From: an uncultured Gammaproteobacteria bacterium
Lineage (GTDB): Bacteria; Patescibacteriota; Patescibacteriia; Magasanikbacterales; UBA922
Length of the DNA: 64,000 nucleotides
NCBI GenBank assembly: GCA_964345045.1
Contig: CAYFPM010000003.1
Coordinates: forward strand, 6,038 to 70,037
Reading direction: 5' to 3'
Shown here: positions 2,288 through 46,320 of the stretch, piece by piece
How the letters are laid out: every line of letters starts with the position of its first letter
Position numbering within the stretch: position 1 is the first letter of the stretch
The notes under the pieces: generated by a model
Told to the model about the DNA's origin: nothing
Database searches by the model: none
What the model saw: only the letters and a program-made list of their open reading frames with translations
Program-made: the position numbers and the translations under genes

Positions 2288-4261
2288 CTAGTTTGCAAAC
2301 ACCTTCAAATTATTACCAGAAAATTTTATAGTTTCTAATTTTTTAGCTTTTCTATTCCAAACTCGAATGTCTTGATCCCCAGTTTTGGGTGCTACCACAA
2401 TATCGTCCGATCCATCCATATTGTAATCTCCTACCAATAGATCTACTCCTCTAGTATAGGTAGTCCCATAAGAGAAAAACTTTCGCAGTAACCGACCATT
2501 TTCATTGTAAAAAACCAAATAAGGAGTTTCTCCCTTTGCTGCGGCTAGCACATACTCGTCGATTCCATCGCCATTTATATCTCCAGATTCTATCAAAGCT
2601 CTATTTTTTACAAAATCCAAATCTTTTTTAAACTTTATATTTTTTTCAGCATCAAAATGATACAGAGAAACCACTGAATTTAATTTGTAAACTGCCAAAA
2701 CTTGATCTAGCCCTCCTATAATATTGTAAACAGAACTGTTAACTCCGCCATGTCTTTGGCTTATTTTGTTTTCATCTAATTTTTCACCACTTAGACTATA
2801 TACGCTATACACAATATCCGAGGCATAATCTGGAGAGACAATTATCTCTTCTGCCTCGTCTCCATAAACATTTCCTACAGAAAAATTTTGCTTACCAAAA
2901 GATTCTATTGTCCAACTGTTTCGAAAAGCCCAATCTTTGTTATAAAAACTAACTTTGGCTGTATCTTTATTTGTTTGCTCAATTGTCACATAGCCATCTT
3001 TGGTGGCAGCCACATCATCTATATTTTTCAAGATACTAGATTGGTTTTTGGTTAAATTTTTTGAATACTTTTTGTTAATAATTTCTCCGGTATTTAAATC
3101 GGTAATATTTATAGAATGCAAAGTCTTGGTATTGGAAATTTGAGACAAAGCAAAATCAACGACTTTGTTTATTTGCAAAAGCCCAGCTCCATAAAAATTT
3201 TCATAAGCTTCTACATCTGCCGGAGGAGTTCTATGTACATTGTCCAAAATAGCACTATAAATTTGGTCTGGTCCCCAACTAGGTTGGATAGATTTGACCA
3301 AGGCGGCTGTACCTGCCACAAATGGAGCTGCAAAAGATGTTCCTTTCCAACCACCACCGTATTTTTCGGTCAAACCATACCTAGGAGCATAACGCATGGT
3401 GCTAGCAATATTTACTCCCGGAGCAGTAATATCTATACAATTGGAACCTACATTGGAAAAAGGAGCCAAATAATGATCTTCTCCAATAGCACTAACCCCC
3501 AAAACCCACTGTTTATCTACATAAGAATCTGCACAAATTGGATAAACAGGAGATATATTTAGAGCCAATCTATTGTTGCCAGACGCAGCCACTACTACCA
3601 CACCATTGTCATAGGCATATTTGATAGAATCTCTTACTCCATCGTCTACATCTCCAACCAAACTAATATTTATAACATCGGCCCCATTGTCTACCGCATA
3701 TCGAATAGCATAAGAAAGTGGTTTAAGGTCTCCTACTCCAGCCTGCTCCAAAGCTTTTACATTCATTAATCGAACCTGCCAATTTACCCCTGCCCCACTA
3801 TTTAGATTGTTGCCCACAGCTCCTACAATTCCGGCAACCAGTGTACCATGATGAATACTATCTTCTACAGCCGATTGTATAGTTACCCGTGGTCTAGGAT
3901 CATTGTCCCCTTTTAATTCTTCTGGTTCAAACAATCCATTGCCATTTTCATCTTTGCCAGAAAAATCCCAGCCCCAAACATCGTCTATATAACCATTGTT
4001 ATCATCGTCTATATTATTGTCTGGGATTTCATCTTCGTTTTTCCAGGCATTTGGAAATATATCCGGATGAAAGGTATCAAAACCATTGTCTACAATCGCT
4101 ACCACTACTTCTTTGCTACCAGTAGATTTTTCCCAAGCCTCAAAAGCTTTTATATCTTCGTATGGCCATTTTTTGGACAAATCCGGGTCATTTGGCACTA
4201 GAGCATTTACAGACGTCGGCAAGGCCAAAATAATGGCTAAAAATAGATAAATTTTTTTCAT
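2288..4261 (-). CDS. secreted subtilisin-like S8 serine protease with C-terminal FG-GAP/VCBS-like repeats
   Basis: Signal peptide MKKIYLFLAIILALPTSVNA. Catalytic triad contexts VAIVDNGFD, HGTLVAGIVGA and GTSFAAPFVAG. C-terminal DINGDGIDEYVL and GDYNMDGSDDIVV repeats. Confidence 0.8.
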   Translation of the reverse strand: MKKIYLFLAIILALPTSVNALVPNDPDLSKKWPYEDIKAFEAWEKSTGSKEVVVAIVDNGFDTFHPDIFPNAWKNEDEIPDNNIDDDNNGYIDDVWGWDFSGKDENGNGLFEPEELKGDNDPRPRVTIQSAVEDSIHHGTLVAGIVGAVGNNLNSGAGVNWQVRLMNVKALEQAGVGDLKPLSYAIRYAVDNGADVINISLVGDVDDGVRDSIKYAYDNGVVVVAASGNNRLALNISPVYPICADSYVDKQWVLGVSAIGEDHYLAPFSNVGSNCIDITAPGVNIASTMRYAPRYGLTEKYGGGWKGTSFAAPFVAGTAALVKSIQPSWGPDQIYSAILDNVHRTPPADVEAYENFYGAGLLQINKVVDFALSQISNTKTLHSINITDLNTGEIINKKYSKNLTKNQSSILKNIDDVAATKDGYVTIEQTNKDTAKVSFYNKDWAFRNSWTIESFGKQNFSVGNVYGDEAEEIIVSPDYASDIVYSVYSLSGEKLDENKISQRHGGVNSSVYNIIGGLDQVLAVYKLNSVVSLYHFDAEKNIKFKKDLDFVKNRALIESGDINGDGIDEYVLAAAKGETPYLVFYNENGRLLRKFFSYGTTYTRGVDLLVGDYNMDGSDDIVVAPKTGDQDIRVWNRKAKKLETIKFSGNNLKVFAN

Positions 4262-4382
4262 ATAAATAAATACAGCAGCCAGTGCAAAAACATTGACTTT
4301 TTGTTATAATTATGCTAATAATAAACAGCTTTATTATAATTTATAATCAAGCAAATTTCAATTTGTGAATAACATAATTATT

Positions 4383-4871
4383 ATGAAAGTAAAGATATTA
4401 GTAACTGGCGGAACTTTTGATAAAGAATACAATGAATTAAATGGATCTTTGTTTTTTAAAGATACCCACTTACCAGAAATGTTGTCTTTGGGTAGATCCA
4501 AAGTTCCTGTAGAAACCGAAATTCTTATGATGATAGATAGCCTAGATATGCAAGAAAATGATAGAGCTCTAATTATTGAAAACATCAAAAAAAGCAAAGA
4601 AGACAAAATTGTGATTACTCACGGGACTGATACTATGGTAGAAACTGCCAAAGCTATAGCTAGTAAAATAAAAGACAAAACAATAGTATTGGTAGGAGCC
4701 ATGATTCCTTACAAATTTGGTAGTTCCGATGGATTATTCAATCTAGGTTCGGCTCTAGCTTATGCCCAAACACTTCCAAACGGGGTATATATTTCTATGA
4801 ACGGTCTATATTTTTCACATGATAATTGTCGCAAAAACAAAGAGGCTGGTTATTTTGAAAAAATAAAATAA
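4383..4871 (+). CDS. short protein with the asparaginase N-terminal domain only
   Basis: ILVTGGTFDKEY and ITHGTDTMVETA match the two asparaginase N-domain motifs. The six-frame ORF starts with GTG at 4365; the ATG at 4383 is the likelier start. Only about 163 aa, so the C-terminal domain is absent. Confidence 0.5.
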   Translation: MKVKILVTGGTFDKEYNELNGSLFFKDTHLPEMLSLGRSKVPVETEILMMIDSLDMQENDRALIIENIKKSKEDKIVITHGTDTMVETAKAIASKIKDKTIVLVGAMIPYKFGSSDGLFNLGSALAYAQTLPNGVYISMNGLYFSHDNCRKNKEAGYFEKIK

Positions 4872-4876
4872 TTAAC

Positions 4877-6259
4877 ATGAAACTAATTTATAGAACAAAA
4901 CAAATTATATTGGCAATTGGAGATTTGCTTAGTTTTGTTTTTGGTTTTTGGTTGGCTCTCTTAGTAAGAAATTTGGAAACTCCCGAATGGAGCCAAATAG
5001 AACTCCATATTCCCCTATTTAGTTTGCTGTTTTTACTCTGGATAATTTTTAACTACATCAATGGTCTTTATGATCTAGAGAGAAACACCGGAGACCGATC
5101 TTTTTACAAAAATTTTGCCGAAACCACCGGCCTGTCTCTTTTGCTTAGTATTATTTTCTTCTACTTACTCAATTCAGTTATTGCTCCCAAAACAATTTTG
5201 CTTTTGAATATCTTGTTTGGCTATGGACTTAGCTTGGTTTGGAGAATTTTTTATAAAAAAACTTTTGCCGGCAAAGCCTTACTTACCAAAGTTCTAATGG
5301 TTGGTCACAGCGAAGAAGTAGACTTTTTGCTAGATATTACCAAACGCAGACCAGAAAAAGGTTATGAAATTGTGGCTCTGGTTGACCCCGAAACTACAGC
5401 CAACAAAAAATCTGGTGTCCCTGTTTATCACAATTTGGAAGAAATGAAAAAAATCATTGCCAAATATGGAATCGATCTAGTTATCATTGTGCCACATATC
5501 CAAAAAAACAAGGCTAGTGAAAAACAGATTTATGAACTACTTTTTACAAAAGTTCAAATTAGTGATTTGCCAACTTTTTACGAAATTATCACCGGCCGTA
5601 TCCCTCCTTCTACTTTTTCCGAAGGTTGGTTTTTGCAACACTTAACAAAAAAAGAAAAACCCCTCTATGACAAAGTGAGAATTATTATTGACTACTTTGT
5701 AGCTACAATATTATCTATTTTTGTTTTGGCTATCTTGCCGGTTATTGCCCTGCTTATAAAAATAACTTCCAAAGGTCCGGTTTTTATAAAACAAAAAAGA
5801 GTAGGACAAAATGGTCGTGAATTTGTCCTATACAAATTTCGTTCTATGTATACCTTGTCTGCCGATGGCAGTGCCGAACTTGGCGAAGTTCAGTTTGCCA
5901 CGAGAGGTGACAAACGTATTACCCCGATTGGCCGATTTCTTCGCAAAGCTAGAATTGATGAATTGCCACAAGTTCTGAACTTGCTAAAAAGAGACGTTAC
6001 TTTGATTGGTCCTAGACCCGAGAGACCAGAAATTGTTCGGGAACTTGAAAAAAACATGTCTTATTATCCTTTGCGTCATTTGGTGCGTCCAGGTTTAACT
6101 GGCTGGGCACTTATAAACCAAGGTTATACAGACGATTATGACAAATCTTTGCAAAAATTGCAGTATGATCTTTATTATATAAAGAATAGATCTTTTGCCC
6201 TAGACATAGTTATTTCCTTGCGTACTCTTAATGTTTTGCTAAGGTTGATGGGGCAGTAA
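4877..6259 (+). CDS. polyprenyl-phosphate glycosyl-1-phosphate transferase (WbaP/EpsL-like initiating sugar transferase)
   Basis: N-terminal TM helices. C-terminal bacterial sugar-transferase signature KRDVTLIGPRPERPE and DELPQVLNLLK. Confidence 0.85.
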   Translation: MKLIYRTKQIILAIGDLLSFVFGFWLALLVRNLETPEWSQIELHIPLFSLLFLLWIIFNYINGLYDLERNTGDRSFYKNFAETTGLSLLLSIIFFYLLNSVIAPKTILLLNILFGYGLSLVWRIFYKKTFAGKALLTKVLMVGHSEEVDFLLDITKRRPEKGYEIVALVDPETTANKKSGVPVYHNLEEMKKIIAKYGIDLVIIVPHIQKNKASEKQIYELLFTKVQISDLPTFYEIITGRIPPSTFSEGWFLQHLTKKEKPLYDKVRIIIDYFVATILSIFVLAILPVIALLIKITSKGPVFIKQKRVGQNGREFVLYKFRSMYTLSADGSAELGEVQFATRGDKRITPIGRFLRKARIDELPQVLNLLKRDVTLIGPRPERPEIVRELEKNMSYYPLRHLVRPGLTGWALINQGYTDDYDKSLQKLQYDLYYIKNRSFALDIVISLRTLNVLLRLMGQ

Positions 6260-6293
6260 AATTTTAATGTCCAATTACAAATTTTAAATTTTT

Positions 6294-6322
6294 AAACTAC
6301 TGAGCTGACACTCAGTTTTTTG
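6294..6322. terminator. A-tract/hairpin/T-tract terminator (AAACTACTGAGctgacaCTCAGTTTTTTG)
   Basis: ACTGAG/CTCAGT stem followed by a T6 run, directly after the stop of the 4877..6259 gene. Confidence 0.5.
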
Positions 6323-6408
6323 TTCTATAGACAAAGTTTTGACTTAAATAATTCGACTATCAATGCTAATAATTTTGCTCAATTTAGCTAAATTTTGACC
6401 AAAATGTC

Positions 6409-6437
6409 TTGACAAAAGGCATTTTTTATGTTATACT
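6409..6437 (+). promoter_or_regulatory. sigma70-like promoter (TTGACA, 17 nt spacer, TATACT)
   Basis: Consensus -35 and near-consensus -10 with 17-nt spacing. It lies about 140 nt upstream of the GC-rich gene at 6580. Confidence 0.45.
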
Positions 6438-6579
6438 GCTTTGTTAGTTTCTGCTTTTTCTTAAGTAGAAAAACGATTTAAAAATATAATTTTTGTGTTT
6501 TTGGATCGTTCTTTCTATAGCCTACAACCTGGGGGTATCCCCCATTCAATCAACAGGGCTTTGCCCAAAGGAGCAAGAG

Positions 6580-7650
6580 ATGCGAAACTTCGCGCTCGTC
6601 ATCGCCATTCTGATCACGTGTGTCGCCACCATCAGTGGCTGCACCAAGAACAAGACCGAGGAGAAGCAGAAGTCGATCACCACTTCTGAGAGCTACTTCG
6701 GAGGTGACTGGCTTTCCGCAGTCCCCGACTGCGATCCCCTGAACGCAGCCATCAACCCCGATGCCATGGAGGTCGAGGACGGGATCGACAACAACTGCAA
6801 CGGCCTCATTGACACGGCCGAGTTGTCGGTCGACGTCCTCACCGACATCGAGAGACTCGGGGAGGTGCGCAAGCGCTTCTTCGACAGTGCCTTTGTCCGC
6901 AATGGCCCCCCGAAGGAGGAGGACGGCTGCTACAGCGGAAGAGCCTTCATTCGGGCCCTCTGGGCCATGGCCACCGACGAGAAGAGCGTCAAGAACGCCT
7001 CCGGCCTGGTCGGCGAGGCCTACAACGTCGAACTCAAGCTTGTGCAGAATGCCGATCTCTCTTCCAAGGACTGGGAGGAGATCTGGTACCAGACCGCGAA
7101 GCACATGCTCCCGGAACTGGTCGCCTATTGCGAGCCCACGCTCGACGTGGGCAACATGAGGTTCACGGCCACTTCGACGGGTAGCGGAGGCTTCCACGAA
7201 GTCTACTGGCAGATGAACGAGCTGGAGCTCGTTCACAAGCTCTACCCGGGCACGGAGAGCCCAGAGGACGCGGCCGAGACGATCGTACTCTTCGGGAACC
7301 TGCCGTACCCGATGAGCCCTGACAAATATCGCCACTACCACGAGCTTTCAAAGGTGGTCTTCCGCCACCTGGTCGAACTCAAGCAGAAAGGGAAGGACGA
7401 CTTGCCCTACCTCATGAAGTTCTTCCCGGTCGGAGATGGTTCGCCATCCGATTGGATCGGGCCGACACTCGAAGAGAAACTCTGCAAGGAAACGGACCGC
7501 ACCATCGAGGAGCGGGAAAAGTTCCTCGCCGTCGTGAGACGCCGTGTGAACAACAACGTCCTGTTTCAAAAGATCCGAGACAGGGACGACGGCAGTCCGA
7601 CATTCCCGCCGAACATGTCGGTAGAAGACTACTGCCGAGTGTGGAAGTAG
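6580..7650 (+). CDS. GC-rich predicted lipoprotein with a MopE-like Cys/Asp putative metal-binding motif
   Basis: RBS AAGGAG then ATG at 6580. Lipobox VATISGC. Motif DCDPLNAAINPDAMEVEDGIDNNCNGLID resembles the C-x-D-x-N-A-x-x-P-G-A-x-E-x-C-D-G-x-D-N-x-C-x-G repeat common in Myxococcota proteins. Strong GC and codon-usage contrast to flanks. Confidence 0.6.
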   Translation: MRNFALVIAILITCVATISGCTKNKTEEKQKSITTSESYFGGDWLSAVPDCDPLNAAINPDAMEVEDGIDNNCNGLIDTAELSVDVLTDIERLGEVRKRFFDSAFVRNGPPKEEDGCYSGRAFIRALWAMATDEKSVKNASGLVGEAYNVELKLVQNADLSSKDWEEIWYQTAKHMLPELVAYCEPTLDVGNMRFTATSTGSGGFHEVYWQMNELELVHKLYPGTESPEDAAETIVLFGNLPYPMSPDKYRHYHELSKVVFRHLVELKQKGKDDLPYLMKFFPVGDGSPSDWIGPTLEEKLCKETDRTIEEREKFLAVVRRRVNNNVLFQKIRDRDDGSPTFPPNMSVEDYCRVWK

Positions 7651-7798
7651 GTTCCCCACCATCTTTTCTGTGCCATAGGGTGCACAGATCGCAGAAGATG
7701 TAAAACATTCACAACCCAAACAAGGAGATCCCCATGTGCAACTGCGATGTGCCTGGGAACCAACTATTATTTTTACAAAGTTAAAAATAATTGAGGAC

Positions 7799-7829
7799 AA
7801 AAAAACTGAGTTAGTACTCAGTTTTTTTG
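7799..7829. terminator. A-tract/hairpin/T-tract terminator (AAAAAACTGAGTtagtACTCAGTTTTTTTG)
   Basis: Perfect 8-bp stem, 4-nt loop, T7 run; A-tract upstream makes it potentially bidirectional. Confidence 0.5.
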
Positions 7830-7841
7830 TTTAATTAATTC

Positions 7842-7958
7842 CTCCCCTATTAGGGGAGGCTAGCCCGCCTGCCTTGCTTCCCGATTTATCGGGATGCGGG
7901 CAGGGTGGGGTCAAATCGTCTACCAGCCCCCCTCTGTCTCCCCCTAATAGGGGGAGAA
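7842..7958. repeat. palindrome-bounded intergenic element (CTCCCCTATTAGGGGAG ... GC-rich hairpin ... TCTCCCCCTAATAGGGGGAGA)
   Basis: Two near-perfect palindromes in mutual inverted orientation enclose a structured GC-rich core (cccgat/atcggg and cctgcc/ggcagg pairings). The same boundary sequences recur at 41921 and 42342 around a DUF559 gene. Confidence 0.5.
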
Positions 7959-7979
7959 CTTTATTTCAATTTTTCGAAT

Positions 7980-8912
7980 CTACCCAATCCCCCACAATTC
8001 CTTCATCTGTTTTATCCCTTCTTCCAAATTAATCTTTGGCTCCCAGCCAAGCATTTCTTTGGCTCTGGTGTTGTCTGCTCTGGCATAGCGTGGATCTCCT
8101 GCTCTAGGATCTATGTTTGTAGTTGGTCCACCAATCAACTCAGCCAGTTGATTGACTGAGTATGGACTATTGTTTCCAATATTTATCATTTCCCCTTTGC
8201 CAACTTTGTCACTAGTCATAGCCAAGATATTGGCTTCTACAGCATCGTCTACATGAGTATAGTCACGGAAGTATTCTCCATCTCCACAAATAGTCATAGA
8301 TTCACCATTTTGCAATTGGCGCAAGAACTTGCCAATTACTAGGGCATAAGCTCCTTCCGGATCCATGTGCGGACCATAAATATTAAAATAACAAAGTGAA
8401 ACCGTTTCTAATCCATAAAGACTAGAAAAAAGTCGGCAGTATTCTTGACCAGCCAATTTTTGCAAAGCATAGGGGCTAAGCGGATTCTTCTTCATATTTT
8501 CTTTTAGAGCAATTGGTTCGTCTGATCCATAGACCGAAGAAGAAGTAGCAAATATAACTCTTTTTACTCCAGCATCTTTGGCAGAAAGAAGCACATTAAG
8601 AGTTCCATTCAAGTTGTGATCATTGGTAATATCCGGATGCTCAACAGAATAAGGTACCCGTGGCACAGCCGCTTCGTGAAAAACACCATCAACTCCTATT
8701 ACTGCTTTTTTGACATCTTCCAAATTTCTTATATCTCCTTCTATATATTCCACACCGTCAATTTTTCTTTCTGGAAATTTTTCAAAATCTCCAGCCGAAA
8801 AATTATCAAGCACGCGCACATCATGTCCGTCACGCTTTAATCTTTTTACAATGTTGGTACCGATAAACCCGGCACCGCCTGTTACTAAGTATTTCATATT
8901 TTTTTTAGTCAT
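7980..8912 (-). CDS. NAD-dependent sugar nucleotide epimerase (GalE/WbpP-like)
   Basis: MKYLVTGGAGFIGTNIV Rossmann motif, about 310 aa SDR-type epimerase. Confidence 0.8.
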   Translation of the reverse strand: MTKKNMKYLVTGGAGFIGTNIVKRLKRDGHDVRVLDNFSAGDFEKFPERKIDGVEYIEGDIRNLEDVKKAVIGVDGVFHEAAVPRVPYSVEHPDITNDHNLNGTLNVLLSAKDAGVKRVIFATSSSVYGSDEPIALKENMKKNPLSPYALQKLAGQEYCRLFSSLYGLETVSLCYFNIYGPHMDPEGAYALVIGKFLRQLQNGESMTICGDGEYFRDYTHVDDAVEANILAMTSDKVGKGEMINIGNNSPYSVNQLAELIGGPTTNIDPRAGDPRYARADNTRAKEMLGWEPKINLEEGIKQMKELWGIG

Positions 8913-8986
8913 ACTGAGCGGAGCGCAGCGGAGTCGAAGTATCCCGTTTATAACGAACGAGATCCTTCGCTAGCGCTCAGGATGAC
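8908..8986. repeat. MITE-like hairpin repeat with GTCAT(A/C)CTGAGCG terminal inverted repeats
   Basis: Left arm GTCATACTGAGCGGAGCGCAGCGGAGTCGAAG, right arm CCTTCGCTAGCGCTCAGGATGAC. Member of a family also present at 13035, 14023 and 46265. Confidence 0.5.
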
Positions 8987-9012
8987 TACACTTAAGACAA
9001 TTAATTTTCAAG

Positions 9013-10392
9013 TTATTTTATAAAAGGACTCCCCACCGCAATTATACCAAATCCGGCTTTTTGCAAATCATCGTACTTGTGTTGCAGCATTCTACGGCCA
9101 TCCATTAACAAAGTATTTGGTTTGGCGTGTTCTATAAGCAAATCTCCCAAACTACGAAATTGTGGCCAGTCGGTGGCTATTATTACTACATCGGCTTCGG
9201 CGATAGCTTCTTTTTCAGAGTTAGTATAAACCATTTTTTCTGACTCTGGAAAATTGTATTTGAAAAAATCCATAGCAGCCGGATCATAAGCTTGAATTTT
9301 TTTCACTCCCGAACCAAGCAAAATCTCGGCGATGTTTAAGCTTGGTGAGTTGCGAGTATCATTGGTATCTCGTTTGAAAGCTAGTCCAACCAAGGCTACG
9401 GTTTTGTCGCCCCACTCTATTCCGGCATCACGACCAGCTCTATCCAAAAAATTTTGCAATTGTCTTTTGTTGGCCCCATATGTTTCGTCTACAATCTCGG
9501 AATTTTTGCCAGCGTCACGCAATTGATGAGATAGGGATCTGGCATCTTTTATAAAACAGCTACCTCCGGCATAAAGACTATCATAAAATCCCCAATTACC
9601 AATTCTTTCATCACCAGTAATTATTTTACGAAGCTGTTCAAAATTTACATCGTCAAAAGCTTCGCTAGTGCGACCAATTACATCAAAACAAACGGCTAGT
9701 TTGTTGAAAAGATAAAAATTGGCCAACAGCTTACCGGCAGCAGATTCTTTTGGGTTTACTTCTAGATATTTTACAGTAGCCGAACTATAGAATCTGTCGT
9801 ATACGCCTCGCATTATGGCAAAATCTTTTTCACTCCAAGCTCCTACTACTACTCTGTCGGGACGAATGGAACCTTCTATAGCTTTGCCCTCTACCAAAAA
9901 TTCTGGGTTAGAAACTACACCATAATTTTTTACCCCCGCTTCGTCCATAATTTTGGCAGTTTGATCTACCATATCTATGGGCACGGTGCTTTTGTTTACT
10001 AGTACTACGTATTTTTCTTGGCTCCCATTATTTCTTTCTTTCAAAACTGTGGCCAATTGTTCGGCGGCTTTGTGATAGTATTCCAAATTGCTTTCGCCTG
10101 TCTCTCCAATTTCTGGAGTTGGCAAACACATAAAAATAGCATCAACATTGTCTAAAAAGGCTGTTACTTCCGAATAATCGGTAGTAAAACTAATGCGATC
10201 TTTGTGTCTTTGGAGTAGCTCTGCCAAACCTTCTTCGTAGATTACAGAATCTATTTGGTTTTTATCTCCCGAGCCTAATTTTTTTATTTTGTTTTCGTCT
10301 ATATCAAAAACCAAAGTAGTGTGTCCACTATCTGCAGACACAGCTGCCGAACAAGCGCCTACAAAACCAGATCCAATATATAAAATATTCAT
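9013..10392 (-). CDS. ugd: UDP-glucose 6-dehydrogenase
   Basis: MNILYIGSGFVGACSA N-terminal NAD fold and UDP-glucose/GDP-mannose dehydrogenase family length. The ORF in the track is extended upstream to 10566, but the ATG at 10392 matches the family N-terminus. Confidence 0.8.
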   Translation of the reverse strand: MNILYIGSGFVGACSAAVSADSGHTTLVFDIDENKIKKLGSGDKNQIDSVIYEEGLAELLQRHKDRISFTTDYSEVTAFLDNVDAIFMCLPTPEIGETGESNLEYYHKAAEQLATVLKERNNGSQEKYVVLVNKSTVPIDMVDQTAKIMDEAGVKNYGVVSNPEFLVEGKAIEGSIRPDRVVVGAWSEKDFAIMRGVYDRFYSSATVKYLEVNPKESAAGKLLANFYLFNKLAVCFDVIGRTSEAFDDVNFEQLRKIITGDERIGNWGFYDSLYAGGSCFIKDARSLSHQLRDAGKNSEIVDETYGANKRQLQNFLDRAGRDAGIEWGDKTVALVGLAFKRDTNDTRNSPSLNIAEILLGSGVKKIQAYDPAAMDFFKYNFPESEKMVYTNSEKEAIAEADVVIIATDWPQFRSLGDLLIEHAKPNTLLMDGRRMLQHKYDDLQKAGFGIIAVGSPFIK

Positions 10393-10750
10393 AATATAAA
10401 TGCTTGAAATGCCAAAAAAGCTAGAGAGGCTTTTAAGGCTTTTATGGGGGATACTATAGCAATTTGGATGTTTATTTTCAAGGGTTTTTGATAAATAGTT
10501 CTTGGTTCTTAGTTCAAAGTTATTAGTTAAGAGTACAGCTAAAATAATGCTAATTAGAAATTGCAACGGTCTCTGCCTTCGCTAGATTCACTATTACATA
10601 TTGCCAACTGCCTATACCCCAAAAAAACACGAAGGCCGGGCTGCTTTTTGCAACTCGGCCGGGCAGATACTGCCTTTCTCAGCATCTGCGCGTTTACCCA
10701 CTCACCTATGTCTACATCCGTTTTCACTATTTGCCCCTCCCAGAGCATGT

Positions 10751-11419
10751 TTACTCGTTGTCGTCTCCACCCAAAACCTCTACAAGTGGCACATCGCGAA
10801 CAGTGTCGGCCACTTGTACATCTAGTATCTCCGGGACTCCCGGGTCGGTCTGCACATCTGCCTCAAATGGCGGATGCAGCTCCTCGAGCCGACGACCTGG
10901 GACTGTATCCTTGTTCGCAGTCATTCTCCTCTGGGTTCTTCGGCTGGCACTGGCTAGCGGCCCTGGGTGCCGCTGGTCTGGCTCGGTGGTGCGCCTGGCT
11001 TGCCTAATTAGGAATTGAGCCAATTCTTCGTCTATGTCTGGGTCAAACCCTAGGCCCTCTCTATGGGGGGCTGGCGGGGCGACCAAACCAGGTGGTGCTT
11101 TGGCTTCTTCCATGTCACTTAGGATCTTGCCTAGCTCTGGAGCCGGGACAATATCTACAGGAGTGACCTCGCGCAAGTAGGGCGGCAAGCTGCTAGACTC
11201 TCTGGGCTGAGCCGGCATAGCCAAACCTTTGGCTAACTCTTGGGGCGAACTTGCATTCGCCCTGCCGACCATAGCCAGCGAGGTAAGCGCTGCCAAGAGA
11301 GCAACAACAGCTGTACCAATCAGGCTTTGTCGGCGAGATAGTACGCCGAGGAACCCTAGGGAAAGTATGGTGGCCAAAGCCACCAGTGTGGGTAACACTA
11401 GGAAACGCAATCTTTTCAA
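10751..11419 (-). CDS. GC-rich membrane-anchored proline-rich protein (unknown function)
   Basis: TTG start preceded by AAGGGAAG. Two N-terminal TM helices, then a Pro/acidic low-complexity tail. GC-rich codon usage unlike flanks. Confidence 0.45.
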   Translation of the reverse strand: MKRLRFLVLPTLVALATILSLGFLGVLSRRQSLIGTAVVALLAALTSLAMVGRANASSPQELAKGLAMPAQPRESSSLPPYLREVTPVDIVPAPELGKILSDMEEAKAPPGLVAPPAPHREGLGFDPDIDEELAQFLIRQARRTTEPDQRHPGPLASASRRTQRRMTANKDTVPGRRLEELHPPFEADVQTDPGVPEILDVQVADTVRDVPLVEVLGGDDNE

Positions 11420-11652: not shown

Positions 11653-12885
11653 GTGAAACTTACCATCACCAACCCCGACCACGCCTCCTACATCACCAGC
11701 CTCGACAACCAAAGATTCGCCGATGTACTCGTGGGAGAAGCCCCGAACATTCACTTCAACGATGGCAGGGCGGACAACCCGGTCATGCAGCTGTTGTGGA
11801 CAGATCCCCAGACTATCGTAGATATCTGCACCCTGGCCCTGCCCAAGGCAGAGCAAATGGAGACGTCCACCCACGTGAAACAAGAACGCCAGGCCGCCAT
11901 CTATGTATTGATGGTCGATGCATATCGGCGACTGTGGCAAGCAGAAACCTCTACTTCTAGGAAGATGTCTCTAGATGCGCAAGTCGCAGATATCTTCGAA
12001 AAAGCTCAGAGCCTGGTCGAGAAACTCGAGGAACACGATGTTGACAGAGCCAATAGGCTCACCGGATCTATGAATCACAACCGTATCCAGATGCTGGTTT
12101 CTACCGGCAAATACCTAGATGCTACCAAGCTCCACGACGAAAACGCTCGCCTCGCAAGAGAAGTGAATGATTTCCCCACCTTCGACCGAGAAGAACTTCG
12201 TGCCGCCGTACACGCCGCCAATCACCAACTGTGTTTTGGTGATCGCAGCGATATGGTCGGAGACCCAGACAGGTTGATAGATTGGGACTTGGCCGTACGC
12301 CAGGCTCAAGAGACAGCTCTGCATGTTGCAAGTCAATATGCAGACCAAGAAGAACACATCGCCATGGCCATCGAGGCACTTCTCTACGCTATTCGAATGG
12401 ACTGGTTGTCTAGGAGTGATCGCGACAACACGGCCTATATCCAACAAATCTCCGCCATGATGAGCGGGAACGAAGGCTTGCAAAAAGCCTTTGGCTGGAT
12501 GCACACGATCCTGGGGGCAGCCCAACTCATTCATTCCTTCAAGAATTGGGGGGAGGAGGTAATCGTTGAAGCCGAAAAAGCCATCGCCAGAATGAAGGAA
12601 ATCGGGGACAACGAAGATATCCCCATGCCCTACCGCACCGAAGCCATGCTCTGTATGGCGCAGCTGTCCAGCGCTCTAGGCCATTTCATCAGCCAAAACA
12701 GGTTCGGTTCCCATGGAGGCGCAACCATCCCCCAGTACCCGGACAGAATGCGGGCAGCCTACGAAGAAGCTGCCTCTATCCTACAGAAGCTCCAGAACCT
12801 GCAAGGTAGCCTGGCCTGGAAGGACGTAGCCACTATCATGGACAAGAGGCACCTCCCCAACGTACTCAAGTATTGCGCGGGATAA
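11653..12885 (+). CDS. GC-rich hypothetical alpha-helical protein (410 aa, no recognisable domain)
   Basis: GTG start preceded by GAGAGG. Long uninterrupted ORF in a GC-rich island, divergent from 10751..11419 across an AT-rich 230-bp spacer. Confidence 0.5.
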   Translation: MKLTITNPDHASYITSLDNQRFADVLVGEAPNIHFNDGRADNPVMQLLWTDPQTIVDICTLALPKAEQMETSTHVKQERQAAIYVLMVDAYRRLWQAETSTSRKMSLDAQVADIFEKAQSLVEKLEEHDVDRANRLTGSMNHNRIQMLVSTGKYLDATKLHDENARLAREVNDFPTFDREELRAAVHAANHQLCFGDRSDMVGDPDRLIDWDLAVRQAQETALHVASQYADQEEHIAMAIEALLYAIRMDWLSRSDRDNTAYIQQISAMMSGNEGLQKAFGWMHTILGAAQLIHSFKNWGEEVIVEAEKAIARMKEIGDNEDIPMPYRTEAMLCMAQLSSALGHFISQNRFGSHGGATIPQYPDRMRAAYEEAASILQKLQNLQGSLAWKDVATIMDKRHLPNVLKYCAG

Positions 12886-12993
12886 CATCAAAAAAGCAAC
12901 CTACCTCTCAACCGTTCTAAAGTTTAATTAGATTTAAATTTTTAGACCGGCCCCCTTCCCTTTGTTTATAAAAAATTTGTAACCAAAGGAAAA

Positions 12994-13026
12994 CAAAAAA
13001 CTACTGATATGTTCAGTAGTTTTTTG
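12994..13026. terminator. A-tract/hairpin/T-tract terminator (AAAAAACTACTGAtatgtTCAGTAGTTTTTTG)
   Basis: 8-bp stem, 5-nt loop, T6 run, about 110 nt after the stop of 11653..12885. Confidence 0.5.
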
Positions 13027-13034
13027 TTAGTAAA

Positions 13035-13207
13035 GTCATCCTGAGCGGAGTGAGTCTGAAAGACGAACACAGTCGATCCGATGCTTGCGATACGGATTCT
13101 CCGACGCAAGGTACGGAGTCCGTATTGAAACATCGGACCGTACTGTAAACGTCGGAAAGGATCCCGGTTGAAGTCCAAAGAGATTCTTCGCTAACGCTCA
13201 GAATGAC
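13035..13207. repeat. about 173-bp MITE-like element with GTCATCCTGAGCG / CGCTCAGAATGAC termini
   Basis: Terminal inverted repeats plus a highly self-complementary core (ccgatg...catcgg, atacgga...tccgtat). The core is the reverse complement of the core at 14023..14194. Confidence 0.55.
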
Positions 13208-13245
13208 TATAACTAATCAATCAGATTCTCACTACAACCTACCCC

Positions 13246-14016
13246 CTACTCACTAACAACATTCTTCGGATCTTCTCCCAAAGATTTGGTATAACCTTCG
13301 TTTCTGGTGTGGTGAGCATTGATCCCCTGCCATTCCGGATGAGCCAAACAAATACTAAGAACTTCGTTAAGTCCATAAAAACCACCTCGGGCTTCACAAC
13401 TTTCAATCAATAATCGCAAAAATTCAAAATCTTCCGGAGTATCCAAAGTCCAACGATGATTAGAAAAATCTTCTGTATTGGCTATATTAAAAAGTTTAAA
13501 CTTGTCCGGATGCTTCCAGATATAAGGCATTACGTGTTCACGCTCGGAATTAAGCTTGGCTTCTTTCCAAGCTTTTTCGAGGGCTGCAAAAGAAACCACC
13601 TCTGTATCAAGTCCATCTGGAAAAGTTGGTGGCTGAGTGTTTGATACATAATCATACTCCCCATCCAAAAAAGCTTGAATAACTCTATCTGTAACTTGCG
13701 GATCAAGCACCGGGCAATCTCCTGTAACACGCACAATTACATCGGCCTTGGACTGAATAGCAGCATGATAATATCTATCTAGCACATCTACCTCACTACC
13801 TCTATAATGTGGAATTCCTTTTTCTACTGCCCAATCGGCCAAAACATCGTCGGCATGGCTGGTAGTAGTAGCCAACCAAACATCATTTGCCAATCGAGAC
13901 ATTCTAGCTCTTTCTATCACGCGCTCTACTATGGGTTTGCCGGCTATGTCCATCATCATCTTACCTGGCAATCTGGTAGAGCCCATCCTGGCTTGAATTA
14001 TAATTACAACTTTCAT
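13246..14016 (-). CDS. CMP-nonulosonate cytidylyltransferase (NeuA/PseF/LegF, CTP_transf_3 family)
   Basis: MKVVIIIQARMGSTRLPGKMM N-terminal acylneuraminate cytidylyltransferase signature. Confidence 0.75.
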   Translation of the reverse strand: MKVVIIIQARMGSTRLPGKMMMDIAGKPIVERVIERARMSRLANDVWLATTTSHADDVLADWAVEKGIPHYRGSEVDVLDRYYHAAIQSKADVIVRVTGDCPVLDPQVTDRVIQAFLDGEYDYVSNTQPPTFPDGLDTEVVSFAALEKAWKEAKLNSEREHVMPYIWKHPDKFKLFNIANTEDFSNHRWTLDTPEDFEFLRLLIESCEARGGFYGLNEVLSICLAHPEWQGINAHHTRNEGYTKSLGEDPKNVVSE

Positions 14017-14022
14017 AAAAAA

Positions 14023-14194
14023 TTAATAAACAGTCATCCTGAGTCGCAGGTGAAGGATCCCAGTGGAAGTCCAAAGAGACCCTTTCCGACGTTTACAGTA
14101 CGGTCCGATGTTTCAATACGGACTCCGTACCTTGCGTCGGAGAATCCGTATTGCAAGCATCGGATCGACTTCGCTGTGCTTCGCTCAGGATGAC
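14023..14194. repeat. about 172-bp MITE-like element, inverted copy of 13035..13207
   Basis: GTCATCCTGAGTCGCAG ... CTTCGCTCAGGATGAC termini. The core ccgacgtttacagtacggtccgatgtttcaatacggactccgtaccttgcgtcggagaatccgtat matches the reverse complement of the 13035 copy almost exactly. Confidence 0.55.
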
Positions 14195-27654: not shown

Positions 27655-27762
27655 TTATAATGCATTTAAGCTTAGCAGATGTGGTTTTAAAAAGCAAGCG
27701 TAAAACTTGGCTTTTTTTTGGCTAAAATAAGTAAAATTTTAGGAAAAATTCAAGGAGTAATC

Positions 27763-27791
27763 TTGACAATAAAGTTTTTTTATGATATTTT
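27763..27791 (+). promoter_or_regulatory. candidate sigma70-like promoter (TTGACA, 17 nt spacer, TATTTT)
   Basis: Consensus -35 but weak -10, about 100 nt upstream of the GC-rich micro-gene. Confidence 0.3.
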
Positions 27792-27892
27792 TTGCAGTCG
27801 TATAGTCTCTTGCTTGGGTGTGTCATAAGAGAACGGGGAAAGCAGATCGATAACCCCAACCAACTCCCCCCAAGGGAGAAAGGAACTCCTCT

Positions 27893-28111
27893 ATGGCACG
27901 TCCCCTGCACTACGACAAACACGGCAATCCCGACTTCGACTGGGACGATTGGGATCCCATTGCGGAAAGAAAACCGCAACCTCCAATCGTAATGTCGCCA
28001 GAAGAGGCTGCAAGGTATGGAGAACTCCAACTGCGCGCCTGGGAAAGTGACGGTGAAGTCCAAATGTCGGCTCTCGCCGACGAAGAGGGCGAGGAACCCG
28101 AGTCCGAGTAG
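27893..28111 (+). CDS. GC-rich small acidic protein (72 aa, unknown)
   Basis: RBS GGGAGAAAGG then ATG. Strongly acidic DFDWDDWD ... EEGEEPESE composition. GC-rich island only about 300 bp wide. Confidence 0.4.
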   Translation: MARPLHYDKHGNPDFDWDDWDPIAERKPQPPIVMSPEEAARYGELQLRAWESDGEVQMSALADEEGEEPESE

Positions 28112-28170
28112 TAGTCTGGGAGGCCTGGCTTTGTGCATTGCACAGAGCCAGGCCACCACTTACATCAATC

Positions 28171-28199
28171 AAAAAACTGAGTAGACCTCAGTTTTTTTA
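28171..28199. terminator. A-tract/hairpin/T-tract terminator (AAAAAACTGAGtagacCTCAGTTTTTTTAT)
   Basis: Same design as the terminators at 6294, 7799 and 12994. Confidence 0.5.
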
Positions 28200-41907: not shown

Positions 41908-41920
41908 AAGCAAGTTGTTC

Positions 41921-41937
41921 CTCCCCTATTAGGGGAG
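41921..41937. repeat. CTCCCCTATTAGGGGAG palindrome (left boundary of DUF559 cassette)
   Basis: Identical to the palindrome at 7842..7859. Confidence 0.5.
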
Positions 41938-41951
41938 GTTAGGAGGGGTCC

Positions 41952-42338
41952 TTATATAGATAAATTTTTTATATAAAAGATTATATCATTAATAACATTA
42001 TCAAGCTCGTATTTAATTTGTTCATTCCTGTATCTCAAAACAAAATATCCGTTTTGTTGTAAATATTTTTGTCTAATTATATCTTTCTTTTTATTTTCTT
42101 TTTCTGCATGTATGTACCCATCTATTTCTATTATCAATTTCAACTCATGAGAATAAAAATCTACAATATAATAATCAATGTTAAACTGTCTTCTAAATTT
42201 AACCCCCAGTTGTTTTGCTTTTAATTTATACCACAATATTTTTTCCGCTTCAGTTTGACAAGTTCTTAGACACCTTCTTCTTTTTTTAAAAGATGCTTTA
42301 TTCTGGTAACGACCGATTGATTTCATATTGACCCCCAC
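41952..42338 (-). CDS. DUF559 (Vsr/Mrr-like restriction-endonuclease-fold) protein
   Basis: TEAEKILWYKLK ... FRRQFNIDYYIVDFY ... LIIEIDG ... RQKYLQQNGYFVLRY matches the DUF559 layout. Confidence 0.6.
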   Translation of the reverse strand: MGVNMKSIGRYQNKASFKKRRRCLRTCQTEAEKILWYKLKAKQLGVKFRRQFNIDYYIVDFYSHELKLIIEIDGYIHAEKENKKKDIIRQKYLQQNGYFVLRYRNEQIKYELDNVINDIIFYIKNLSI

Positions 42339-42341
42339 TTA

Positions 42342-42360
42342 CTCCCCCTGATAGGGGGAG
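42342..42360. repeat. CTCCCCCTGATAGGGGGAG palindrome (right boundary of DUF559 cassette)
   Basis: Near-identical to TCTCCCCCTAATAGGGGGAGA at 7938..7958, including the preceding CCCCCxCTxxxCT context. Confidence 0.5.
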
Positions 42361-42362
42361 AA

Positions 42363-43523
42363 TTAACTTTTACTCTTATAATTCTCTATAATCTGTTTAA
42401 TTGTTACATCCCAACTAAACGTAGACATAACTTTGTTGTAACTAGCTTCACCAAATTCTTTTCTTTTTTCTTCATTTGAGAGCAACTCATTAACTTTGTC
42501 AGCCAAATTTTGTTTCCTTTCTTCACTTGTATCCATTGGGGCATCATAATCAGAATTTTCCCAATCAACTAGTTTCACCAGATAGCCCGTTTTGTTATCT
42601 TCTACCATTTCCAAATAACCACCAACTCTACTGGCAACAAGTGCTTTTTTCATAGCCATAGCCTCTAGACAAGCCAAACTGGTTGATTCGGCAGTAGAAG
42701 GAAAAACCACAACTTTGGCCAAAGATAAATAACCTGGAACCAGTTTGTTTTCTACTTTTCCAACAAAATCAAAATGTTTTCTTACTCCCAATTCTTCTGC
42801 TCTTTGTTTGAGATATTCTTCTAATTGACCATAACCAACCAAGACAAATTTTACATCTTTGTTTTTTTCTACAATTTTTGGGCTAGACTCTACCAAAAAT
42901 TGTATTCCATTTTTAGGAACCAATCTTCTTACAGTCAAAACAACTTTGTTGTCTTTGTATTTTTCTTCCAAATCAGTTGGTATTTCGGTCTTTTGAAAAG
43001 TTTCTAGATCAACGGCATTTGGAATATACTTAATCTTTTTTTCACTAGTATATTTTTTGGCAATGTCTACAAAATCTTGGCAAGAAGCAATTATATAATC
43101 GGAAACTTTTAGCGAAAACCATCTGTAAAAACTATGTACCAATCCATAAACAAAATTATTTCCAGGTAGATCAAGAATACCTCTTCCCTGCAAAGTTATG
43201 GCAAATGGTTTTTTCTTGAAAATATTATAAATCCCGGCGTAAGCAGCAAACTTGTGCGAATATACTGCATGGATTATATCGACTTCGTCCAAAAACTTTT
43301 TAAGTTCTTTATAAAATTTAATCTTGCCTTTTAGCCCTTTGCCAAAATCTACTCTGGTGGTATTGAAATCATCCTGGTAATCTTTGGTGTTTTTTTCGTC
43401 TAGTGTAAACACACTTACTTCATAACCACTTTTTTGTAGATACTTGGCCAAATTGTAGGCATAAACTTCTGCTCCCCCAATTCTTGGCAAATACCAATCA
43501 ATTACAATTCCTATTTTTTTCAT
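42363..43523 (-). CDS. family-4 (GT-B fold) glycosyltransferase
   Basis: Glycos_transf_1 layout; a C-terminal domain with an EAMAMKKALVAS-type motif. Confidence 0.8.
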   Translation of the reverse strand: MKKIGIVIDWYLPRIGGAEVYAYNLAKYLQKSGYEVSVFTLDEKNTKDYQDDFNTTRVDFGKGLKGKIKFYKELKKFLDEVDIIHAVYSHKFAAYAGIYNIFKKKPFAITLQGRGILDLPGNNFVYGLVHSFYRWFSLKVSDYIIASCQDFVDIAKKYTSEKKIKYIPNAVDLETFQKTEIPTDLEEKYKDNKVVLTVRRLVPKNGIQFLVESSPKIVEKNKDVKFVLVGYGQLEEYLKQRAEELGVRKHFDFVGKVENKLVPGYLSLAKVVVFPSTAESTSLACLEAMAMKKALVASRVGGYLEMVEDNKTGYLVKLVDWENSDYDAPMDTSEERKQNLADKVNELLSNEEKRKEFGEASYNKVMSTFSWDVTIKQIIENYKSKS

Positions 43524-46252: not shown

Positions 46253-46264
46253 AGTTTAATAGTA

Positions 46265-46320
46265 TTCATCCTGAGCGTCAGCGAAGGATCTCTTCGGACT
46301 AAGGCTAGGATATTTCTTCC
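46265..46320. repeat. partial copy of the GTCATCCTGAGCG repeat family
   Basis: TCATCCTGAGCGTCAGCGAAGGATCTCTTCGGAC shares the left terminus and GAAGGATC core; no matching right arm. Confidence 0.35.

Follow-up and report, generated by a model that had tools for sequence, protein, structure and literature searches.

Probable capture of a GC-rich lipoprotein gene behind a resident promoter in the surface-glycan locus of a Magasanikbacteria-like bacterium

We analyzed a 64-kb stretch of contig CAYFPM010000003.1 (positions 6,038 to 70,037), hereafter the window, and in particular island A, a short GC-rich segment that lies between a sugar transferase and an epimerase gene and encodes a predicted lipoprotein. 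Island A is compositionally foreign DNA with a sharp break against its host and, judged by the syntenic loci of relatives, it is an insertion into a convergent spacer that is normally minimal. We consider it probable that a ∼1245-bp fragment of a high-GC donor was captured by illegitimate integration behind the resident promoter of an AT-rich, Magasanikbacteria-like host. In this scenario, the capture would be illegitimate and non-site-specific, into the sugar transferase/epimerase spacer of a surface-glycan locus. The captured fragment would hold 60 nucleotides (nt) of donor upstream DNA, including the gene's own Shine-Dalgarno (SD) sequence, one complete donor gene, and 114 nt of donor downstream DNA with the ribosome-binding site (RBS) and first 10 codons of the next donor gene. 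Transcription would come from a resident TG-extended sigma-70 promoter, and the predicted transcript would begin near 6444 and end at a host bidirectional terminator (7797-7830). We infer the direction and mechanism of the capture, as well as its transcription, from the features presented below.

The insertion and its boundaries

Island A corresponds to a GC-rich fragment of ∼1245 nt (6520-7764) with 58% GC, in surrounding host DNA of ∼30-36% GC. In a two-change-point maximum likelihood fit, the GC-rich stretch begins at 6520 (support interval 6503-6531) and ends at 7761 (support interval 7753-7767), with 58.1% GC within the change-points versus 29.5% outside. These sharp breaks bear out the compositionally foreign island proposed in a preliminary description of this DNA, and the right junction is at ∼7761-7765, where that description had put it (7764/7765). 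The same contrast is seen within codons. In the lipoprotein gene (6580-7650), the GC fractions at the first, second and third codon positions are 0.56, 0.38, and 0.83, whereas third-position GC (GC3) is 0.31-0.32 in the flanking genes and 0.19-0.37 in the host genes of the window, as mapped from open reading frames (ORFs) of at least 110 amino acids (aa). Both junctions of a single-gene capture are thus resolved to within ∼15-30 nt, in DNA that has not been ameliorated. The features of the locus are as follows.

4877-6259, plus strand: polyprenyl-phosphate sugar transferase (Bac_transf), host flank; PF02397, E = 1.6e-56; GC3 0.32
6299-6322, plus strand: host-style intrinsic terminator after the sugar transferase (ACTGAG-loop-CTCAGT and T-run)
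6377-6445, plus strand: conserved promoter block, homologous to positions 7389-7455 of L163, a contig from a relative
6409-6437, plus strand: sigma-70-type promoter, TTGACA, 17 nt, TG-n-TATACT; 11/12 consensus matches and TG extension
6444-6579, plus strand: predicted leader of ∼135 nt; AT-rich host part to 6519, GC-rich foreign part 6520-6579
6465-6518, plus strand: 25-bp AT-rich leader hairpin ending at the left junction, from folding energy
6520-7764, no strand: foreign GC-rich fragment, from change-point likelihood; junctions identical in Logan contig L001
6530-6544, plus strand: GC hairpin UGGGGGUAUCCCCCA, within the foreign leader segment
6568-6573, plus strand: SD sequence AAGGAG, 6 nt before ATG 6580
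6580-7650, plus strand: lipoprotein gene, 356 aa; GC3 0.83; stop 7648-7650
6580-6642, plus strand: signal peptide MRNFALVIAILITCVATISG up to C21, lipobox I-S-G-C, predicted from sequence
6727-6813, plus strand: single PF11617 (MopE-type) Asp/Cys-rich motif, aa 50-78, from Pfam
7722-7784, plus strand: second AAGGAG-N6-ATG and 16-codon ORF MCNCDVPGNQLLFLQS ending in a stop; codons 1-10 GC-rich, codons 11-16 and stop AT-rich
7766-7791, plus strand: 10-bp AT hairpin at the right junction, from the fold
7797-7830, both directions: perfect bidirectional terminator (A7, ACTGAG-loop-CTCAGT, T7), predicted to serve the island gene and the convergent epimerase
7980-8912, minus strand: NAD-dependent epimerase/dehydratase, host flank; PF01370, E = 3.9e-60

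The protein is recorded twice in databases, with 385 aa in the NCBI/ENA contig (229,673 nt) and 356 aa in Logan contig L001 (ERR2281802, 2070 nt), which is 100% identical to window 5864-7933 and covers both junctions. Could the assembler have joined a GC-rich piece of another organism into the host contig? The contig is metagenome-derived, the lipoprotein gene is a singleton, and both junctions lie in low-complexity AT hairpin DNA, all of which would suit such a chimera or contamination. However, two false joins would be needed, each returning to neighboring syntenic host genes, and a different assembler (Logan) yields a contig that is identical over both junctions. Because this independent contig spans both junctions identically, a double assembly chimera is very unlikely. 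Moreover, a host-type promoter and terminator neatly frame the foreign gene, and further GC-rich ORFs of the same window are framed similarly.

The closest named relatives of the flanking genes are found in Candidatus Magasanikbacteria (Patescibacteria), and the order of the genes is kept in relatives: S8 peptidase (minus strand), sugar transferase (plus), epimerase (minus), and UDP-glucose dehydrogenase (minus). The convergent spacer between the sugar transferase and the epimerase measures 1720 nt in the window. The island is missing from the syntenic site in six relatives, listed here with the identity of their sugar transferase to that of the window.

L164: 65% identical, genes overlap
L167/L168: 60% identical, spacer of 1 nt
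L169: 59% identical, spacer of 43 nt
L170: 57% identical, spacer of 96 nt
L002: 54% identical, spacer of 58 nt consisting of a single bidirectional terminator
L003: 43% identical, spacer of 41 nt consisting of a single bidirectional terminator

Because these six relatives have a spacer of 1-96 nt or overlapping genes, island A is an insertion. No closer strains without the island were found, the best relatives being 65% identical in the sugar transferase, and exact look-ups returned no record of the proteins encoded by the flank genes of the window. Other occupants are present at the same site elsewhere. In L163 (63% sugar transferase identity, 146-kb JGI contig), the spacer holds a 156-aa orphan ORF on the plus strand with a GC3 of 0.64 versus 0.35 for its neighbor (spacer region L163 7384-8191), and the proteins encoded by the window and L163 cargo are unrelated to each other. 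In L165 and L166 (64%), it holds a 119-aa gene of the 23S_rRNA_IVP family, on the minus strand and with host-like GC (L165 1884-2314). Judged from these sequences, the sugar transferase/epimerase spacer is an insertion hot spot. As a separate observation, the loci of L164, L167, L169, and L170 have 50-52% GC although their sugar transferases are 57-65% identical to that of this 35% GC organism, and genomic GC therefore varies widely inside this clade.

The promoter block, the leader, and the terminators

A near-consensus TTGACA-17-TATACT promoter had previously been noted at 6409, and we found its parts at 6409-6414 (TTGACA), 6429-6430 (TG), and 6432-6437 (TATACT), with a 17-nt spacer and 11/12 consensus matches. 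Its assignment to island A, on the other hand, had to be revised, since a 68-nt block is conserved at the same locus in L163 before a different GC-rich orphan. When the two blocks were aligned, the Smith-Waterman score was 43, compared with 19 +/- 2.7 for shuffles, none of 1000 of which reached 43, and conservation is about as dense as in adjacent coding sequence (score 53 over 100 nt). Both genomes display CTTGACAAA (-35) and ATGnTATACT (TG extension, and -10 with the same non-consensus C). Past ∼+8, the leaders are unrelated, as are the 3' flanks. A rough neighbor-joining tree of the sugar transferase groups the window with L163 as its sister.

Because the block is homologous in L163 before a different cargo, the cargo of the window would have been placed behind an older promoter, or would have replaced that promoter's earlier cargo. 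By this comparison the promoter is older than the cargo and is a pre-existing feature of the host lineage that lies outside the island. The simplest reading is a two-step history, in which the common ancestor of the window and L163 would have had a promoter-bearing occupant in the spacer and the coding part behind the promoter would since have been swapped in at least one lineage. Across both strands of the 64 kb, there are five sites with at least 11/12 sigma-70 consensus matches (3.6 +/- 2.1 in shuffles). All five are in non-coding DNA and the four that were checked against the ORF map each precede a co-oriented ORF, a placement that supports the use of such sigma-70-type promoters by this organism. 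An apparent duplication of the 3' end of the sugar transferase at 6320-6380 was discarded, as the similarity lacks significance.

The transcript, whose predicted start is near 6444, would have a composite leader, with ∼75 nt of AT-rich host-like sequence followed by 60 nt of GC-rich sequence (6520-6579). The preliminary description had reported a long, AT-rich leader containing a GGGGGTATCCCCC hairpin. Both leader and hairpin are present, but the leader is not uniformly AT-rich and the hairpin (6530-6544) is in its GC-rich foreign 60 nt. As assessed by folding, the leader has a minimum free energy of -53.1 kcal/mol (z = -5.8), the bulk of which comes from the hairpin at 6465-6518. Because of G-U pairs, this 25-bp hairpin is strand-specific, with -21.8 kcal/mol on the plus strand (z = -7.5) and -8.5 on the minus strand (z = -2.5), which speaks for a role at the RNA level in the sense transcript, e.g. 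as a stabilizing 5' stem-loop. The L163 leader has a stem-loop near its 5' end as well, with a different sequence. In the minimum-energy fold, 6452-6459 pairs with the SD sequence. Sequestration of the SD sequence as a regulatory device was considered and rejected, its unpaired probability of 0.14 not being significantly below that obtained when the host part was shuffled (0.45 +/- 0.17, p ∼0.07). An Rfam scan gave no match at gathering scores and, at E ≤ 1, nothing but sub-threshold noise.

At the other end of the locus, the stem ACTGAG/CTCAGT of the bidirectional terminator (at 7806) is also present at 6299 and 28177. The four strongest A-run/hairpin/T-run terminators of the 64 kb (6299-6316, 7797-7830, 12993-13027, and 28171-28197) all adjoin GC-rich ORFs, and three of them have this stem in common. 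Islands might insert preferentially where operons end, the terminators might have been selected for insulation, or the hairpins might move together with the inserted DNA. With a resident promoter before it and a resident terminator after it, the captured gene would illustrate how foreign DNA can become expressible at once.

The lipoprotein, the interrupted frame, and the donor

The 385-aa database version of the protein, which starts at TTG 6493, is probably over-extended, as its frame crosses both the hairpin of the leader and the AT/GC junction. ATG 6580 is a more credible start because AAGGAG is found 6 nt upstream and the signal peptide begins at Met1. The RBS and lipobox previously described for this GC-rich gene were both found, as AAGGAG (6568-6573) before ATG 6580 and as I-S-G-C21. 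The signal peptide has the features of bacterial lipoproteins, as assessed by a rule that combines a positive n-region, a hydrophobic h-region, and [LVI][ASTVI][GAS]C, and it carries the sole lipobox among the window's ORFs of 100 aa or more. Neither lgt nor lspA was found in the 64 kb. A weak PHROG match to "Rz-like spanin" covers the signal peptide only (aa 5-34), and there was no match in solved structures (full-length search, E ≤ 1), NCBIfam, or PADLOC.

Similarity to the MopE motif, also claimed in the preliminary description, is supported by a PF11617 match (E = 6e-9, 36.4 bits versus a cut-off of 27) over profile positions 1-29 of 30. Like MopE/CorA and other PF11617 proteins, the island protein displays the ∼30-aa motif D-C-D-x-N-A-x-I-N-P-x-A-x-E-x-x-D-G-I-D-N-N-C-N-G and is predicted to be secreted or surface-located. 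Unlike the many tandem copies in PF11617 database matches, there is one copy of the motif, and the middle Cys of the common form is replaced by Glu. Furthermore, there is no similarity to the MopE/CorA of methanotrophs beyond the motif, although residues 9-44 of MopE chain 2vov_A align with the motif segment when this is searched by itself (E = 0.14). Because similarity is limited to the motif and the full-length structure search found nothing at E ≤ 1, we classify the protein, by its sequence, as motif-bearing and not as a MopE/CorA family member. PF11617 spans only a small region of MopE/CorA, and the motif alone is not grounds for copper binding (PMC6189053).

Relatives were sought among about 15 billion proteins overall. 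A word-indexed search of 5.8 billion clusters returned only the protein itself and motif-level matches with 8-13% query coverage; there are five motif-only matches, the sole named one being from Desulforhopalus. When aa 85-356 were searched exhaustively with HMMER against 1.84 billion representatives, one credible remote relative was identified, P0011, a 379-aa protein with 26% identity over aa 165-352 (pairwise E 5e-14, library E 6e-4). Matches of this HMMER search to giant PKD/TIG-repeat proteins were set aside as probably spurious sums of weak repeat matches. P0011, which is of similar length, is predicted to be a lipoprotein too (LGGC) but is without the MopE motif, and it shares with the island protein conserved positions (Cys, YPG, and SDW) as well as DYC at the C terminus. 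The alignment reaches the C terminus, and the island gene is therefore complete. P0011 is itself a singleton, and its gene lies with other orphan genes on a 2868-nt contig that is unclassified and has 65-70% GC. Its run (L082, SRR22388172) is close in accession to that of the host relative L169 (SRR22388270), and the two may share a study or environment.

By these searches, the protein family is known from two sequences, both in GC-rich DNA, among ∼15 billion. The Asp/Cys-rich MopE-type motif probably binds a divalent cation, and the protein, which also has an orphan domain of ∼280 aa with conserved cysteines, most likely has a surface-exposed accessory role. With low confidence, we propose that the product is a lipid-anchored accessory protein located outside the cytoplasm, with one disulfide-containing module that binds a divalent cation, both its lipidation and its metal binding being predictions.

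After the stop of the lipoprotein gene, a second translation start is found, with AAGGAG at 7722-7727 and ATG at 7734, followed by an ORF that ends at 7784. This start had been described as AAGGAG-N7-ATG; it is indeed present, with a spacer of 6 rather than 7 nt. The frame reads MCNCDVPGNQ and then LLFLQS before the stop, and its reported switch to AT-rich sequence after ∼10 codons is seen after codon 10. The micro-ORF is interrupted exactly at the composition change and has the same SD-ATG geometry as the lipoprotein gene. When the 114-nt 3' flank was shuffled, such an SD-ATG arose in 0.15% of trials (p ∼0.0015), and two of the four strict SD-ATG patterns on the plus strand of the whole window are in the island. 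We are inclined to see the micro-ORF as the first codons of the gene that came next in the donor, cut off at the junction. The donor operon was not found, and the gene downstream of P0011 is unrelated.

The gene had also been termed "Myxococcota-style", a label that we do not retain, as it derives from a 29-aa motif, and for the remaining 280 aa the single relative is a remote one (P0011, 26% identity). The PF11617 motif is very abundant in Myxococcota lipoproteins. If it marked the origin of the fragment, the donor would be a myxobacterium and the fragment part of a Myxococcota operon, and a GC3 of 0.83 would fit a genome of at least 60% GC. We nevertheless find a myxobacterial donor rather doubtful. 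None of the five motif-only matches is named as Myxococcota, the remainder of the protein has a single relative, on an unclassified contig, and host relatives themselves reach a GC3 of 0.69. Transfers into Patescibacteria, moreover, come mostly from other Patescibacteria (PMC12455944). Because of this predominance of intra-phylum transfer, and because host relatives have loci of 50-52% GC and GC3 values up to 0.69, a high-GC donor within Patescibacteria is possible, but the GC3 of the island gene (0.83) is higher than in every host relative sampled.

Probable mode of capture and other features of the window

There is no tRNA at the locus. The region from 2288 to 10566 contains five ORFs, all without a recombinase domain, for the S8 peptidase, an asparaginase-like protein, the sugar transferase, the epimerase, and the UDP-glucose dehydrogenase. 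By inspection, there are no attC-like cores, and the hairpin at 7766-7791 is without RYYYAAC or GTTRRRY. Viral contigs, phages, and plasmids contained nothing related, save one motif match in a Persicobacter replicon. A long target-site duplication was considered and rejected: the terminators at 6294-6321 and 7800-7827 are 79% similar, but their flanks are not, and the motif recurs at 28177. With regard to an IS200/IS605- or REP-like unit, similar hairpins were seen at 6299, 7806, and 28177, with flanks that are not conserved; no transposase was found, and L163 is without the left hairpin. With no tRNA, recombinase domain, long target duplication, or attC-like core, the locus is best explained by the illegitimate capture of a random piece of donor DNA.

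The same locus might be seen as an expression slot. The promoter block, possibly together with the 5' and terminator hairpins, would then be a dedicated landing pad that takes up foreign single-gene fragments time and again, served by a hairpin- or site-specific recombinase encoded elsewhere. Such a cassette platform would account for the recurrence of the block before different GC-rich orphan cargo in the window and L163, for the AT hairpins that abut both junctions, for the strongest bidirectional terminators all adjoining GC-rich ORFs, three with a shared stem, and for a third, unrelated insertion at the same spacer in L165 and L166. We judge it improbable, however, given that none of the five ORFs around the site has a recombinase domain and no attC-like R''/R' core sites were seen. 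In addition, the distance from the junction to the -10 differs between the two genomes, whose leaders are unrelated, the stem of the L163 terminator is a different one, the cargo of L165 lies on the other strand with host-like GC and no promoter block, and the block is found in two genomes only. The arrangement resembles an integron, with its Pc promoter and exchangeable promoterless cassettes, in that one resident promoter is followed by different foreign promoterless cargo with hairpins at its boundaries. It differs in that no integrase, attI, or attC core sites were found at the locus, there is one cargo and not an array, the breakpoints are not fixed, and two genomes are concerned. The genomes of Patescibacteria are tiny, and for most of these organisms a life attached to other microbes is assumed. 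That Magasanikbacteria-type episymbionts have an integrase-free slot by which they capture and express random foreign surface-protein DNA, possibly from the bacteria they live on, is likewise a long shot. If it were true, non-ameliorated cargo would point to the episymbiont's own host organism, and the terminator hairpins beside the GC-rich ORFs of the window would be part of the same capture/insulation system. More generally, if the reuse of a promoter with swapped cargo were widespread, it would offer a simple route to surface-protein novelty and a handle on partner organisms.

Alternatively, island A could be an inert passenger, i.e. a recent insertion, neutral or slightly deleterious, that is without useful expression and will be lost. 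Its composition is not ameliorated, the gene is in one genome only, and the SD sequence is mostly paired in the folded leader (unpaired probability 0.14); an open ORF is weak evidence to the contrary, since a 263-aa antisense ORF is also open in the same GC-rich DNA. Against this, the gene is intact up to a C terminus that is conserved with P0011, it is correctly oriented behind a conserved promoter and before a terminator, and the pairing of the SD sequence is not significant, 7% of shuffles being as low. We therefore regard an inert passenger as possible, if unlikely. Returning to capture behind a resident promoter, which we prefer, a number of observations weigh against it. The donor sequence was not found in the cluster and HMMER searches, and the direction and source of the transfer are drawn from composition. 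The gene occurs in a single genome without close relatives, and a transient neutral acquisition is possible. Promoter conservation comes from two genomes, the window and L163, between which a 2-nt indel leaves a -35/-10 spacer of 17 nt in the former and 15 nt in the latter, and the window's five promoter-like sites with 11/12 matches or more are no excess over chance. As for the product, a host lipoprotein could not be seen among the window's ORFs of 100 aa or more, lipidation is a prediction, and an AlphaFold2 model built from the two-sequence alignment is unusable (predicted local distance difference test score of 36).

Single-gene horizontal acquisition at a glycan-locus hot spot is a known kind of event. 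What is less ordinary here is that the boundaries are very clean, that a resident promoter is reused with different cargo in a sister, and that the protein family is extremely rare. Surface-polysaccharide loci such as those for O-antigen and capsule are mosaic hot spots of recombination and insertion. Island A resembles these in its position between conserved genes of the glycan pathway, at a junction whose content is lineage-specific, but its cargo is an orphan lipoprotein instead of a glycan enzyme and its GC content is above, not below, that of the host. In a survey of transfers in Patescibacteria, most were old (mean divergence of 23.7%) and intra-phylum, with donors recovered, and recent gene gains from outside the phylum were reported to be rare (PMC12455944). 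As with the islands of that survey, deviant-composition accessory DNA in a streamlined candidate phyla radiation (CPR) genome was found by GC deviation and absence from relatives. In contrast, the window has a single non-ameliorated gene for which no donor was found, behind a pre-existing conserved promoter.

The window contains four further GC-rich ORFs, at 10751-11419 (minus strand), 11653-12885 (plus), 27722-28159 (minus), and 50271-54284 (minus), with GC3 values of 0.53-0.64 (0.55, 0.64, 0.58, and 0.53). These values differ, and the ORFs are probably separate events. No Pfam domain was found in the GC-rich part of these four ORFs. The 1337-aa protein among them has an AT-rich N-terminal M23 peptidase domain (GC3 0.32) fused to GC-rich, Cys-rich repeats of 654 nt, and a single ORF thus contains a change of composition.

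Close to the right end of island A is a short element.

7839-7960, no strand: 122-nt element that has no ORF and is ended by hairpins; its termini are those of the DUF559-carrying element 41917-42363

In the larger element, the GC-rich hairpins TTCCTCCCCTATTAGGGGAGG and CTCCCCCTGATAGGGGGAGAA enclose a gene for a DUF559 endonuclease (41952-42338, minus strand, Pfam E = 1.8e-31). The 122-nt element looks like a miniature derivative of it, and a weaker third copy of the left end is found at 61212-61236. A link of such elements to DNA breakage at the insertion site would be speculation.

Two inverted repeats of 119 nt that are 90% complementary (13071-13189 and 14052-14170) surround an 862-nt segment holding a cytidylyltransferase gene (13246-14016, minus strand), which could be invertible or mobile. 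Finally, an intergenic motif of ∼30-37 nt, GAGATCCTTCGCTAGCGCTCAGGATGAC, occurs at 8959-8995, 46256-46292, and ∼13180-13210, in both orientations, and looks like a dispersed short repeat family.

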